DNA from: Escherichia coli
GTDB lineage: Bacteria > Pseudomonadota > Gammaproteobacteria > Enterobacterales > Enterobacteriaceae
Length of the DNA stretch: 64,000 nt
Reading direction: 5' to 3' (one strand)
Assembly: GCF_003334305.1 (NCBI RefSeq)
Contig: NZ_QOWS01000002.1
Under the pieces are notes generated by a model. It had not been told where the DNA came from and made no database searches. It was given only the letters and a program-made list of their open reading frames with translations. This document shows, in pieces, positions 1 to 47,411 of the stretch; the stretch's first letter is position 1; each line of letters starts with the position of its first letter. Made by a program: the position numbers and the translations under genes.

Positions 1-41
1 GCAGCGTCAATGGCTTCTTCAAGCGTTGCGTACATGGTCAT
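1..41 (-). CDS. msyB: MsyB acidic protein, N-terminal fragment (gene runs off the left edge of the window)
   Basis: Reverse-strand ATG at 39-41 followed by MTMYATLEEAIDA..., which I recognise as the MsyB N-terminus; lies immediately upstream of mdtG as in K-12. Confidence 0.6.
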   Translation of the reverse strand, partial: MTMYATLEEAIDA

Positions 42-5327: not shown

Positions 5328-6446
5328 TTATTGGAAGCGGGAAAGCCTGAATGGCGTCAAATCAAAATCGCTTTTTTTGTCTTGCGCAAAATCGGCAGCT
5401 ATTTCCCCTAAAACTGACGCAAATTTAAAACCGTGCCCACTCAGGCCGGTAATGAGCAGTGTATTATCGTGGCCGGGTAGGGTATCGATAATAAAATCTT
5501 CGTCAGGCGAATTATCATAGGTGCAGGCAGCGCCGTACAGGCAGCAACCGATACCCGGCAATACATTGCGCAAGAACGGGAAGGCTTCCGAACCATCGCT
5601 GACCACTTCCGCAAACGGAACACGTTCATCCGCTGAATGGATAACCTGGCCTCCGTTATGTTTGCCAATCTTCAACGCGTCGTTTTCTGCCGGAAAACCA
5701 TAATATTGATCGCCATTGGGCAGTTCACCGGTAAACGCCGGGAATTTATTCTTCACGCTATAGCGGCCATCGGCCTGATACCAGGCAAATACTTTACGTA
5801 CGGGCTGGACAGGCAGCTCCGGGAGCAGGTCTTTTACCCATGTTCCCGCGCAGACAATCGCTTTTTTCGCCTGATACTCACCGTCAACGGTTTCAATAGT
5901 TACGCCATCATCGTCATGACGAATTGCGGTGACCGGGCAGTTGAACAGTTGCGCACAGCCCGCTTCCTTCGCCAGTTGGATCCAGGTTTTAATCGCCAGT
6001 TCGCTGCGCAAAAAACCGGAATCAGTCTCAAATAAGCCGATGTAGTTGTCCGGGACGCGTATTTCTGGCCAGCGGGCCATAATCCCTTGCGCATCGAGCT
6101 TTTCAACGTTGAGTTGCCACTGTTCGGCGCTGTGGGCGACGTTGGCGAGAAATGCGGAGTCAGCCGGGCCGAGGTTAATGACACCAGAGCGTACAAAAAT
6201 GGGATCATCTTCGTTGTGGCGGGAAAGTTCATCCCACAGCGTTTGCGCGCGGAGGACCAGCGGGACATACTTTTCGCCTTCACCATAAGCATGGCGAATT
6301 AATCGCGTATCGCCATGGTGGCTGCCGTGTTGATGCGGTGGCATATGGGCGTCGGTCATTAGCACGTTTAAACCGGCGCGGGTTGCATAATACCCGGCGG
6401 CAGCGCCTACGGAACCGCTGCCAATAATGATGAGATCGTATTTCAT
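5328..6446 (-). CDS. solA: N-methyl-L-tryptophan oxidase
   Basis: 372 aa; N-terminal FAD-binding motif [15 protein letters not shown]; matches SolA. Confidence 0.95.
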
Positions 6447-6560
6447 TTTTTTCTCTCTGCTCTCATGGTTTAAGCAGAGTAATTAACTGAATGCAGATAT
6501 ACAACCCAGAAATGGTAAAGGCACCGGTGAGGTGCCTTTTGGGTGGATGGTCATGTCATG

Positions 6561-6815
6561 TTAATGACGCCGATACTCGTTTACCGGGAAATCACCGGAT
6601 TCAATTTTGGCGATTCCTGCTTCTAATATCGAAATAAATTGTCTGGCAACATCAGTGGTTAACCAGAGCGTCTGACCAACTTCAGTCCCTTCCTGCTCGG
6701 ACTTATTTGGGGTCTGGTAGTGCAAACGCAACATCAGCGCATCATAGCTATCAACGGTGCTGATGTCCCACCCTACGAGCGGATGAGTCTGAATGACTTC
6801 ATTATTTTTTTCCAT
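6561..6815 (-). CDS. bssS: Biofilm regulator BssS
   Basis: 85-aa ORF; second Met (MEKNNEVIQTHPLVGWD...) gives the 84-aa BssS. Confidence 0.88.
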   Translation of the reverse strand: MEKNNEVIQTHPLVGWDISTVDSYDALMLRLHYQTPNKSEQEGTEVGQTLWLTTDVARQFISILEAGIAKIESGDFPVNEYRRH

Positions 6816-7056
6816 CATGGCCCCCTAATTCGTGTTACTAGACAACGTTATTCGAGGTTCAATGCGTTTTTATCTGAAGCAACTTCAGTATACCAATAAG
6901 TAAGGGTATTCACCGAATTTTTAAAGGGGGGAACAGATAAATTTCTGCTTTTAAGATTTATATGAACAATAAAACAGCATGTCATTCATATTTTTTTAGC
7001 ATATTGTGCAATTATTTTGAGGAAGTGTAGAAATTTTGTACTCAAAATTTGTAAGT

Positions 7057-7083
7057 AAAATAAAAAAGCCGGGGCGACCCGGC
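7057..7083 (-). terminator. dinI rho-independent terminator
   Basis: GC-rich hairpin GCCGGGGCGACCCGGC (7068-7083) immediately 3' of the dinI stop, followed on the - strand by a U-run (forward A-run 7057-7067). Confidence 0.6.
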
Positions 7084-7104
7084 AAAAACAAAAATCACTG
7101 CATA

Positions 7105-7350
7105 TTATTCGCTGACAAACCAGTCATCGGCGCTTTCCCACGTTTCCTGGAGAATTTCGCTAATGCGCTGTTTATCTTCTTTTGTTGCGCCAATAACCGA
7201 TAAATTATTCGCTGCGGCATAACGTACCGATACGTGGCCTTCATTATCAGGAAACGCATACTGAATACGGCGGGAAAGTTCGCCAGCCAGGGCGTCAATA
7301 GCCCCAGCTGGCAATGGAGAAGTTTTCGCTATGGTGACTTCAATTCGCAT
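7105..7350 (-). CDS. dinI: DNA damage-inducible protein I
   Basis: Internal Met of ORF 7105-7482 gives the 81-aa MRIEVTIAKTSPLPAGAIDALAGELSRRIQYAF...; a LexA box lies directly upstream. Confidence 0.9.
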   Translation of the reverse strand: MRIEVTIAKTSPLPAGAIDALAGELSRRIQYAFPDNEGHVSVRYAAANNLSVIGATKEDKQRISEILQETWESADDWFVSE

Positions 7351-7361
7351 AATAGCCCCCT

Positions 7362-7377
7362 GTTGAATATACTGGTT
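7362..7377 (-). promoter_or_regulatory. LexA (SOS) box in the dinI promoter
   Basis: Reverse strand reads CTGTATAAATAACCAG (CTGT-N8-CCAG, close to the CTGT-N8-ACAG consensus) within the dinI upstream region. Confidence 0.7.
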
Positions 7378-7423
7378 ATTTATACAGGCAAAATAACCTA
7401 ATGACAACAGGAAGCTACGATTT

Positions 7424-8470
7424 TTATTGTTTAACGGACCAGCGTACCGTTTCCCCGGCGAGGAATGGCACCAGGGTGTCATCAGTCAGTGCGATGCTTT
7501 CAGCAACCTGTTGCTCTTCACGTACCAGTTCGATGAATGTGTCGTTGACCGGCAAGCCATAGAACTGCGGGCCGTTTACAGAACAGAATGCTTCAAAGTG
7601 CTGCAGAGCATTCATCTCTTCAAAGACGGTAGCGTAACTGCCCAGCGCGGTTGGGGCGTTGAAGCAGCCCGCGCAGCCGCAACTGCTCTCTTTGCGATGA
7701 CGTGCATGTGGCGCAGAATCCGTACCGAGGAATACTCGATTAAAACCGCTGGCGACCAGTTCACGCAATGCCTGTTGGTGAATATTGCGTTTGAGGATGG
7801 GTAAACAATACAGGTGCGGACGCACGCCACCAACCAGCATATGGTTGCGGTTAAACATCAGATGCTGCGGAGTGATGGTGGCAGCCAGCCGTTCATTTCC
7901 GTCACGGACATAGTCGGCAGCATCTTTGGTGGTGATGTGCTCAAAAACGACTTTCAGCGCAGTCAGGCGCTGGCGCAGAGGTTCCATCACGCTTTCTATA
8001 AAGCGCGCTTCACGATCAAAAATGTCGATATCTGCATGTGTCACTTCACCATGCACCAGTAGCGGCATACCGATTTTTTCCATGCGCTCAAGTACCGGCA
8101 TGATTGCGTCAATTGACGTCACGCCGTGGCTGGAGTTAGTGGTTGCGTTTGCCGGATAAAGTTTTGCAGCGGTGAACACGCCTTCGTTAAATCCGCGCTC
8201 CAGCTCATTAGGATCCAGCGAATCTGTTAAATAACAGGTCATCAATGGGGTGAAATTGTGCCCGGCAGGTACGGCATCAAGAATACGTTGGCGATACGCC
8301 ACGGCAGCCTCAACTGTGGTCACGGGCGGAGCCAGATTGGGCATTACGATAGCCCGTCCATAAATTTCGCTGGTATACGGCACGACAGTTTTTAACATGT
8401 CGCCATCGCGGAGGTGAAGGTGCCAGTCGTCTGGGCGGCGGATCTTTAATACCTGGGATGGTGCAGTCAT
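7424..8470 (-). CDS. pyrC: Dihydroorotase
   Basis: 348 aa; [27 protein letters not shown] with the HxH metal-binding motif; matches PyrC. Confidence 0.95.
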
Positions 8471-45221: not shown

Positions 45222-47411
45222 TCAGAATTGATACGTGCTGGTAATGCTGAAATTACGCGGTGTGCCGTAGACGATAGAACCTTCCACGTTGGTATCGTAG
45301 GTTTTGTCGAACAGGTTATTGACGTTCCCCTGTAACGAGAAGTTTTTCGTCACCTGGTAGCGGGTGAAGAGATCCACCAGCGCGTAGCTACCTTGCTCGG
45401 CGCGGAAGGTGCCATACGGTGTCACGGTGTCGGTATACACGCGATTTTGCCAGTTAACACCACCGCCGACTGTCAACTCTGGCATGACAGGCAACCGATA
45501 GCTGGTGAACATTTTAACCGTGGTGCGTGGCAGATTAGGATTAACGGCGTTTCCTTCGTTATCCTCTGCAATATAGCGCGTTGCGCCAAATGTCAGCTGC
45601 CAGTTGTCGGTAATTGCGCCGTTGAGTTCAAATTCCACCCCTTTACTGACTGTCCCATCCACCGCTTTATAGGCGGTTTCGCCGTTGCTGCCGGGGATAG
45701 GTGTACCGGTGGACTGAGCGACATTATCCTGCTCAATACGGAAGATGGCTAATGTGGTGGTCAGACGGCTATTCATCCAGTCCGATTTCAGACCCAGCTC
45801 GTAGTTGTTACCGGTGATTGGAGCCAGATATTTGCCTGAACTGTCACGATCATTTTGCGGCTGGAAAATAGAGGTATAGCTGGCGTAGGTCGACCAGTTG
45901 TCATTGATGTCAAACACCAGACCAGCGTAAGGCGTGGTGTGGTTTTTCTCCATGCTGTAAGTCAGCGTATCAACCCGCCAGTTGGTATAACGTGCGCCGA
46001 GGATCAGATGCAGCGGATCGGCAAGGGTGACACGAGTGGCAGCATATAACGATTTCATATGTGTGGTATCGTCCTGCGCCAGGCTCTGTGGTGACCAGTC
46101 GGTTTGTGGGAAATTGCCATTAAAGTTGTAGAAACTGCCAATTTCATCCGGGAAGATGTTGGCCCATGAACTGAAGTAACGATTGTTTTGTTTGCTGTAA
46201 CTGCCACCAAACATTAGATTGTGCTGACGACCAAACAATTCATAACTACCGTCAGCGAACAAATCCAGCGCATCAACTTTACGTTTGCCACTGTTCCAAC
46301 CGGTGCCGCCGACATAATCAAAGCCAGGTCCATAATTACTGTATGGCCCAACCAGCATACCATCCGCTTTGTTTACATAGGCATCGACATACATCATTTT
46401 GCTGTCAAATTCGACTTCAGAGTGGGTGGCATTCAGCGTCGCTTGCCAGGTATCAGCAAACCGCTGCTTCAGGGTCATAAAGACCTTGTTGATCTCTTTA
46501 TCGTTGTACGCCCAGTCAGGTGCGGTACTGCGTGCACGATCGTAACTGTTGCTGCTGCCATCAGTATTCCAGCGCGGTAAACCGCCCCAGGTAGGGCTAT
46601 TAACATCAATGCGCTGATATTCGTAACCGGCTGAAAGCGTCGTAAGATCGCCTAAATCAGCATCGACAATGCCGGAGAAGAAGGTCTTTTCACTGTTGTA
46701 GCGGTCCAGCCATGAGTCGTTATTCTGGTAGCCGCCGACAATTCGCGCGCGGATTTTACCGTCTTCGGTGAGTGGGCTTTGTAAATCCGCCACATACCGT
46801 TCTTTGTTCCAGCTACCGTATTCCGCCGAGACATCGCCTTTAAATTCACGACTGGTCGCGTGTTTTCGAACCATATTAATTGCCGCAGATGGATTACCCG
46901 TCCCGGTCATGAGTCCTGTCGCGCCACGCACTACTTCTACGCGTTCAAAGAGTGCCATATCAGAAAGTGCGTCGCCCAGATTCCAGCGCGATTCAAAATA
47001 GGTGGGGATACCATCAACCATATAGTTATCGATCTGGAATCCGCGGGAATAATAAAGAGCACGATCGGAATCCGCCTGACTTTTGCTGATCCCCAGCGTG
47101 TTTTCCATCACTTCGCCCAGCGTTTGTAACTGCTGATCTTCCATCCGCTGCTGGCTAACAATAGTGACCGACTGAGGAATATCACGTTGAGTCATCTGCA
47201 TTTTGGTACCCGCAGAGGTAGACGTTACGCTGTAATCATTTTCGCCATCATCTGGAGCTGTGGCTGAACCCTCAACAATCACCGTTTCTTCAGTGGCTGG
47301 TGCAGCAAAAGCGGCAGAAGGTAATAGTGCCAGTGCTATGCAACCGGCAAGTAGTGATGGTTTGGTGCTGGCTTGATATTGATTATCCCTGTTAAATTGT
47401 GTTGAAAGCAT
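45222..47411 (-). CDS. fhuE: TonB-dependent ferric coprogen/rhodotorulic acid receptor
   Basis: 729 aa; signal peptide, TonB-box region and C-terminal aromatic residue (...TSTYQF). Confidence 0.95.
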   Translation of the reverse strand: MLSTQFNRDNQYQASTKPSLLAGCIALALLPSAAFAAPATEETVIVEGSATAPDDGENDYSVTSTSAGTKMQMTQRDIPQSVTIVSQQRMEDQQLQTLGEVMENTLGISKSQADSDRALYYSRGFQIDNYMVDGIPTYFESRWNLGDALSDMALFERVEVVRGATGLMTGTGNPSAAINMVRKHATSREFKGDVSAEYGSWNKERYVADLQSPLTEDGKIRARIVGGYQNNDSWLDRYNSEKTFFSGIVDADLGDLTTLSAGYEYQRIDVNSPTWGGLPRWNTDGSSNSYDRARSTAPDWAYNDKEINKVFMTLKQRFADTWQATLNATHSEVEFDSKMMYVDAYVNKADGMLVGPYSNYGPGFDYVGGTGWNSGKRKVDALDLFADGSYELFGRQHNLMFGGSYSKQNNRYFSSWANIFPDEIGSFYNFNGNFPQTDWSPQSLAQDDTTHMKSLYAATRVTLADPLHLILGARYTNWRVDTLTYSMEKNHTTPYAGLVFDINDNWSTYASYTSIFQPQNDRDSSGKYLAPITGNNYELGLKSDWMNSRLTTTLAIFRIEQDNVAQSTGTPIPGSNGETAYKAVDGTVSKGVEFELNGAITDNWQLTFGATRYIAEDNEGNAVNPNLPRTTVKMFTSYRLPVMPELTVGGGVNWQNRVYTDTVTPYGTFRAEQGSYALVDLFTRYQVTKNFSLQGNVNNLFDKTYDTNVEGSIVYGTPRNFSITSTYQF

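Follow-up and report, generated by a model that had tools for sequence, protein, structure and literature searches.

Base-level conservation suggests that the dinI–bssS spacer of Escherichia coli is an ordinary terminator-plus-promoter region

Introduction

Several described systems resemble parts of the DNA between dinI, a DNA-damage gene, and bssS, a gene of stress and biofilm formation, which are neighbours on the same strand in Escherichia coli. With the intrinsic terminators of enterobacteria, the terminator of dinI shares a 6-bp G+C stem, a 4-nt loop and a U-tract, located about 18–21 nt past the stop codon, but it differs in that its loop and flanks are fixed, whereas the loop of the neighbouring bssS terminator varies freely. 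With the extended −10 promoters of σ70 (TGnTATAAT), bssS shares the element TGgTATACT, a poor −35 region and a transcription start 7 nt downstream. Promoters for σ32 and σ70 reportedly overlap, and the bssS spacer resembles such overlapping pairs in that the RpoD and RpoH holoenzymes both bind it in vitro; it differs from them in that its match to the σ32 consensus is weak (10/14) and not distinctive.

Two further classes of regulatory element invite comparison. Leaders that sequester the ribosome-binding site (ROSE, fourU and the targets of sRNAs and Hfq) have in common with bssS a conserved leader on a heat- or cold-responsive gene, and the bssS leader contains a CCUC that could pair with GGGG as well as an (ARN)3-like stretch near its 5΄ end; however, it folds about as well as shuffled sequence, and shows neither covariation nor an Rfam match. 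Curved A/T-rich DNA that is bound by H-NS upstream of promoters is similar to the spacer in G+C content (33.6% in the spacer), in the presence of an H-NS site detected by genomic SELEX, and in a top-ranking predicted curvature approximately 160 bp upstream of the transcription start. In contrast to such DNA, bssS is a core gene that was not horizontally acquired, no silencing in vivo was found in the literature searched, and the curved segment of the spacer is short (∼40 bp) and drifts in position between species.

Here, we analyzed the spacer in detail, and conclude with a probability of roughly 0.85 that it is an ordinary regulatory region between two same-strand, independently controlled core genes of Enterobacteriaceae. 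The main parts of the spacer are already present in public start-site, SELEX and RegulonDB-type resources; what is new is a base-level constraint map of the spacer in 78 Enterobacteriaceae species, the recognition of the second ATG as the conserved start of bssS, and the observation that the A/T ‘repeats’ of the spacer are its least conserved part.

Materials and Methods

The window denotes the whole stretch of E. coli DNA analyzed (64,000 nt), and positions are those of the window unless a genome accession or the MG1655 genome is named. Conservation is given as the share of the 78 compared species that agree with E. coli, with coordinates in the orientation of bssS. DNA curvature was calculated by the wedge model of Bolshoy and Trifonov, the parameters being those of the literature (Bolshoy et al. 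1991) rather than those of a tool. For comparison, 35 intergenic gaps were used, as delimited by crude gene calls over the 64 kb of the window.

Results

On the minus strand, positions 5328–8470 of the window encode SolA, BssS (6561–6818), DinI (7105–7350) and PyrC. A 1.1-kb query around the spacer found a match in all 5426 of the 5426 complete E. coli genomes, under which only solA, bssS, dinI and pyrC are annotated. Between bssS (b1060, 1120701–1120955) and dinI (b1061, 1121242–1121487) of MG1655 there are zero annotated features, and of the matches listed, the 15 best E. coli genomes likewise carry no annotation in the spacer. The order dinI–bssS was observed at 80 of the 80 loci fetched, one per species, and the spacer, which was measurable at 79 of these, had a median length of 279 bp and a G+C content of 32–48%. 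Compared with MG1655, the window strain carries a 3-bp AAC insertion at 7087–7089 and single-nucleotide differences at 6931 and 7050.

The spacer extends over 286 bp (6819–7104) when measured to the first ATG of bssS, with a G+C content of 33.6%, and over 289 bp (6816–7104) when measured to the conserved start of the gene. This G+C content is the lowest among the 35 gaps between crude gene calls (median gap, 47.7%; whole window, 51.7%), in agreement with the first-pass annotation of this DNA, which had described an AT-rich gap of 286 bp between dinI and bssS. The same annotation had called the gap unusually long, a description that did not survive comparison: with a median gap of 154 bp, 8 of the 35 gaps equal or exceed it in length, and it is close to the median of 279 bp found across 79 species.

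We determined the conservation of each part of the spacer from dinI to bssS. After the TAA stop codon of dinI (7107–7105), the 3΄ untranslated stretch (7104–7084), in which the AAC indel relative to MG1655 is located, had a conservation of 0.49, followed by the terminator segment (7086–7062, 0.993), a variable segment predicted to be strongly curved, to which no strand is assigned (7061–7020, 0.29, about the neutral level), a conserved upstream block (7019–6935, 0.655, approximately −55 to −139 from the transcription start), a short variable patch (6934–6927, 0.27), the core promoter (6926–6881, 0.71) and the bssS leader (6880–6816, 0.80), all on the minus strand except for the curved segment. 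By the same measure, codon positions 1, 2 and 3 of bssS scored 0.93, 0.94 and 0.65, respectively.

Within the core promoter, an extended −10 element for σ70, TGgTATACT (6895–6887, minus strand), was identified by eye and then supported by a published start-site table. The form TGnTATA[AC]T was present in 69 of the 78 species, the TATAnT positions were invariant in all 78, and the sequence TTATTGnTATACTGA of the core promoter was nearly invariant. In the table of Kim et al. 2012 (PMC3415461), the start of bssS is placed at NC_000913.2 position 1120243 on the minus strand (26 reads, 65-nt leader); this position corresponds to 6880 of the window, the coordinate offsets between genome and window having been verified, and the 51-nt start-site sequence given there, which ends in …TTATTGGTATACTGAAGTTG, has a flank identical to the window. 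The start nucleotide (6880, minus strand) is a G located 7 nt past the −10 hexamer, and it is invariant in the 78 species. Both features that characterize an extended −10 promoter were therefore found, namely TGn before a TATAAT-like hexamer and a mapped start 6–8 nt downstream, and inspection by eye revealed no good −35 element upstream of TGgTATACT. Neither candidate promoter of bssS was recovered by a generic promoter scan, whose rules for the −35 element and T6 excluded them.

Published binding and transcription data point in the same direction. Genomic SELEX (Ishihama 2014) detected an RpoD-holoenzyme site in the spacer, and in in vitro run-off arrays Eσ70 outperformed EσS 1.92-fold in transcribing a minus-strand probe of the spacer. 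The table of Kim et al. 2012, which comprises gene-assigned starts from few conditions, lists this single start in the spacer and none elsewhere between bssS and dinI. The presence of a bssS promoter in the spacer, presumed in the first-pass annotation, is thus borne out by a published start at 6880 with an invariant extended −10 element just upstream, and, as far as the accessible data reach, they reveal no feature other than the promoter of bssS and the terminator of dinI, the outcome that the annotation itself had named as refuting it. Two further signals lie within the bssS coding region on the minus strand: a weak start (2 reads) at NC_000913.2 position 1120141, approximately 6778 of the window, which Kim et al. 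2012 (PMC3415461) assigned to solA with a 332-nt leader, and a match of the promoter scan, GGGACA-17-TATGAT, at 6769–6741.

The case for a second, σ32-dependent promoter at the same place comes mainly from published work. Genomic SELEX located an RpoH-holoenzyme peak at approximately 6867 and an RpoS-holoenzyme peak at approximately 7009, and the SELEX study starred bssS as a RegulonDB target of RpoH; it is thus from the literature alone that holoenzyme binding and RpoH dependence are available for this promoter. In one source, the induction of yceP (bssS) by cold, heat shock and oxidative stress is credited to the σ32 regulon paper (Nonaka 2006). By eye, we picked the σ32-like elements CTTTAAA (6926–6920) and CCCTTACT (6906–6899), separated by 13 nt (6926–6899 overall, minus strand), in which TTTA and CCCTTA were moderately conserved in the 78 species. 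The pair matches CTTGAAA-13–15-CCCCATnT at 10 of 14 positions, and because approximately 105 sites in the window match equally well, the σ32 elements are not established by sequence alone. In our reading, bssS is transcribed from the extended −10 σ70 promoter starting at 6880, and the σ32-dependent promoter reported at the same place fits the induction of bssS by heat and general stress.

The bssS gene opens with ATGATG, and the first ATG was used both by mechanical ORF calling and in the coordinates of the first-pass annotation, while the second is used in MG1655. The second ATG (6815–6813, minus strand) is supported by the MG1655 annotation and by conservation across genera, whereas the extra upstream ATG (6818–6816, minus strand) is not conserved, being replaced by ATA, ACG, ACA or AAA in several genera. 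Downstream of the ribosome-binding site AGGGGG (6826–6821, minus strand), the first ATG follows after only 2 nt, and the second after 5 nt. Because the first ATG is unconserved and lies only 2 nt past AGGGGG, we regard the second ATG as the true start of bssS.

The 5΄ leader of bssS defined by this start site (65 nt, 6880–6816, minus strand) has a conservation of 0.80, which is higher than that of the third codon positions of bssS (0.65). It carries the ribosome-binding site for the second ATG, and it includes an A-rich, (ARN)3-like stretch, AGAUAAAAA, near its 5΄ end (6875–6867, minus strand), as well as a CCUC (6857–6854, minus strand) that was invariant in the alignment and could base-pair with GGGG within AGGGGG. 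The minimum free energy of the leader was −13.9 kcal/mol (z = −0.20), no better than that of shuffled sequence, and the covariation term of the leader alignment was −0.1 kcal/mol, where the CCUC/GGGG pairs are invariant and hence uninformative. A structured leader or RNA thermometer was accordingly rejected on the basis of the z value and the lack of covariation.

In addition to the promoter at 6895–6887, bssS might possess a distal promoter that is active in some conditions, through either σ70 or σS. Its elements, ATGACA-17-TATAAA (6985–6957, minus strand), were predicted from sequence by Ishihama 2014, where they are the best sequence match under the RpoD-holoenzyme SELEX peak; the RpoS-holoenzyme peak at approximately 7009 and the conservation of the surrounding block are also consistent with such a promoter. 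It would give rise to a leader of approximately 135 nt, and part of the conservation of the upstream block would then act at the RNA level. However, the table of Kim et al. 2012 contains no start near 6950, and the distal −10 sequence (TATAAA or TATAAT) is limited to Escherichia, Salmonella and Citrobacter; in Enterobacter, Lelliottia and Leclercia it is GAACAA or AAACAA, although the block is still conserved there. Against σS, moreover, σ70 was the more effective of the two in the in vitro array. We therefore consider a distal promoter possible but doubtful, noting that it could coexist with the proximal extended −10 promoter, which we retain as the main promoter of bssS.

The conserved upstream block (7019–6935) was further analyzed as a candidate binding site. 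Within it, on the minus strand, an A-tract, TAAAAAA (6998–6992), precedes the two arms of an inverted repeat, ATGAATGA (6989–6982) and TTGTTCAT (6969–6962), whose centres are 20 bp apart around a dyad near −95.5. The repeat takes the form ATGAAYAA-N12-TTRTTCAT (6962–6989 of the window, minus strand), approximately 95 bp upstream of the bssS start. Individual columns of the block are near-invariant, including T6972 and C6964 (each 77/78 species) and A6995 (75/78). We infer from this pattern that the 85-bp block with its inverted repeat near −95 may be a binding site for one or more transcription factors.

Several regulators could be considered for such a site. In a ChIP-seq experiment with over-expressed CsiR-FLAG, a peak at 1120353 (approximately 6990 of the window) falls on the inverted repeat, and upon CsiR induction both bssS and dinI are up approximately 4-fold; since the over-expressed, tagged protein also gave many peaks inside genes in the same experiment, the CsiR peak is treated only as a lead. 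In a gel-shift assay from Dickeya oryzae, a fragment of the bssS promoter was retarded by ArcA. The RpoS-holoenzyme SELEX peak at approximately 7009 falls within the block, as does a one-mismatch site (6994–7012, minus strand) for the marbox AYNGCACNNWNNRYYAAAY of MarA, SoxS and Rob, of which the window contains 2 compared with 1.29 expected by chance. When the block was compared by eye with the motifs of ArcA, Fis, IHF, NagC, RcsB, PhoP and CsiR, no convincing match was observed; a partial resemblance to a Fis site was seen, by eye only.

Another interpretation of the upstream half of the spacer is that it serves only as a non-specific landing pad for H-NS or Fis, where A/T content and shape would be what counts, without any regulator that recognizes a particular sequence. 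The predicted curvature of the spacer peaks at 34.6° (position 7041), the second highest peak in the 64 kb and the highest among 25 intergenic gaps, and the mean curvature of the spacer ranks in the top 0.8% of 289-bp windows. The strain differences are without effect on this prediction (35.0° in the MG1655 spacer). In each of 77 other species, the spacer peak ranked within the top 5% of values for the surrounding 5-kb locus, and in 56 of them it ranked within the top 1%; A/T richness and predicted curvature are thus shared by the spacers of all species, which, together with the H-NS site flagged in the spacer by the genomic SELEX of Ishihama (in vitro), is what a landing pad would lead one to expect. 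However, shape cannot account for the base-by-base conservation of 6935–7019, as exemplified by T6972, C6964 and A6995, and the adjoining curved segment varies freely. The landing pad is therefore an unlikely explanation, and we continue to favour sequence-specific binding at the conserved block. Other peaks of predicted curvature among the highest in the window (33–35°) were located at 46402, 54258, 4538 and 37459, of which 46402 exceeds that of the spacer.

The spacer has the character of A/T-rich, curved DNA expected of H-NS targets, with the lowest G+C content of 35 gaps and the second-highest curvature peak, whereas the best match to the high-affinity motif TCGATAAATT is CAGATAAATT, which has two mismatches and is at chance level. 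The proposal in the first-pass annotation that the curved AT tract is a target of nucleoid proteins is accordingly supported, for H-NS, by the in vitro SELEX and by the wedge model, but not by the H-NS motif. The position of the predicted curvature peak shifts between species. Any action of H-NS at the spacer in vivo would be deduced from these in vitro and predicted properties, from which the curved segment may nucleate H-NS or otherwise shape the architecture of the promoter.

The A/T ‘repeats’ of the first-pass annotation, to which no strand is assigned, are located in the variable segment (7061–7020), at 7031–7040 (AAATTTTGTA) and 7044–7053 (AAAATTTGTA). The annotation had reported AAATTTGTA twice, which proved incorrect: a single exact copy is present (7045–7053; 0.8 expected by chance in the window), the other ‘copy’ being AAATTTTGTA with one extra T, and both lie in the least conserved stretch of the spacer. 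An imperfect A/T palindrome, of which these two form the arms, is the more apt description. Furthermore, the C at 7050 in MG1655 breaks the second copy, and the T of the window strain creates it. Direct repeats in the spacer were rejected as a feature, the repeat families being short two-copy chance matches.

Next to dinI, the terminator scan found an intrinsic terminator on the minus strand (7083–7058; hairpin, 7083–7068), confirming the terminator anticipated in the first-pass annotation. Its stem is GCCGGG/CCCGGC (6 G-C pairs), with the loop UCGC and the tail UUUUUUAUUU; the U-tract tail reported by the scan for 7083–7058 is TTTTTTATTT. The folding energy was −13.1 kcal/mol (z = −2.2), and a G+C hairpin followed by a U-tract is thus present on the coding strand after the stop codon, as expected from the sequence of an intrinsic terminator. 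In the same scan, no T-run at the hairpin and no terminator were found on the plus strand, and since a matching T-run is lacking there, the terminator is one-directional.

The degree of conservation of this terminator is high even compared with coding sequence. The 21-mer GCCGGGTCGCCCCGGCTTTTT, which includes the loop and flanking bases, was exact in 77 of the 78 species, covering approximately 20 genera, and the column identity of 0.993 is higher than that of codon positions 1 and 2 of bssS. By comparison, the bssS terminator of the same genomes keeps its stem, AGGCACC/GGTGCCT, while its loops differ in dozens of versions. The dinI hairpin sequence occurs once in the 64-kb window and was absent from the viral contigs searched for it.

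This conservation might be taken as a sign of an independent sRNA or antisense transcript in the spacer, for instance a 3΄-terminal fragment of dinI that ends at the invariant terminator. The dinI hairpin and loop are identical in 77 of 78 species as against dozens of loops in the bssS terminator, and the conservation of dinI third codon positions rises slightly toward the 3΄ end (0.58–0.64 over the last 27 codons; mean, 0.50). However, the approximately 18 nt between the dinI stop codon and the hairpin, where the seed would be expected, are poorly conserved (0.49), no plus-strand terminator exists, and only one start is listed in the spacer in the table of gene-assigned starts from few conditions. 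Neither does any Rfam family match: a search of both strands of 6400–7500 with Rfam 15 yielded a top score of 22.7 bits, compared with a gathering threshold of 46 bits, and a lowest E-value of 0.34. Weak Rfam matches to STnc240 and RyhB, with E-values above 1, were rejected. A separate RNA is consequently very improbable, and the terminator of dinI remains our reading of the hairpin.

The spacer contains four small ORFs of 45, 31, 23 and 22 codons, the longest being an ATG ORF at 6985–6848 and the next a TTG ORF at 7091–6996, both on the minus strand. Depending on the ORF, the start codon was kept in 11 (the 45-codon ORF, whose length is also variable) to 65 of the 78 species; lengths varied widely, and no Shine-Dalgarno sequence was present. 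The first-pass annotation, which had seen no ORF of at least 30 codons with a plausible ribosome-binding site, thus needs amendment only in that ORFs of 45 and 31 codons exist, neither of them conserved or preceded by a Shine-Dalgarno sequence. That one of the four ORFs, such as the 45-codon ORF, encodes an unannotated small protein is effectively refuted, because the ORFs are unconserved, with unstable starts and lengths across the 78 species and no Shine-Dalgarno sequence upstream, and no such protein is annotated in MG1655 or among the 15 listed E. coli genomes with the best matches. Judged from sequence comparison, the spacer appears to hide neither a gene nor an RNA, since nothing suggests either.

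We finally considered how far this arrangement reaches. BssS forms a narrow family, for which clustering at 50% leaves 39 representatives. In one divergent BssS locus of metagenomic origin (L082, 61% identity, 1–310), the end of a pyrC-like gene lies directly upstream of bssS and dinI is missing; the −10 sequence TATACTGAA is kept there, and the leader and the rest of the spacer differ. A second locus, L083, is an error-ridden, Enterobacter-like contig, and the footprint was not usefully extended by either locus.

Discussion

The terminator, the start site, the −10 element, the conservation pattern and the in vitro binding are documented either here or in the literature, and they are best explained by a spacer in which the end of one core gene is followed by the promoter of the next. 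In this arrangement, a strong intrinsic terminator would end dinI transcripts, so that bssS would be insulated from SOS-driven transcription of dinI. After the terminator come approximately 40 bp of unconstrained, curved A/T DNA, and the spacer is bound in vitro by H-NS and by RNA polymerase holoenzymes. The binding of a factor at the conserved block, as well as any function of the leader, is suggested by conservation.

A more specific, joint reading is that the block at 6935–7019 serves as operator for a regulator so far unconnected with bssS, and that the loop-invariant hairpin of dinI is read in a sequence-specific manner. As a whole we regard this as tentative, with the odds against it. 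In its operator part, the regulator may integrate the many stresses that induce bssS, and CsiR, whose ChIP-seq peak falls on the repeat, may be a candidate. In its hairpin part, the reader may be an RNA-binding protein, or the hairpin may be the 3΄ end of a stable RNA derived from dinI.

As it stands, the spacer matters little, being a normal terminator-plus-promoter region of well-known core genes. If the conserved block were a specific operator, it would help to account for the frequent appearance of bssS in transcriptomes of stress and biofilms.
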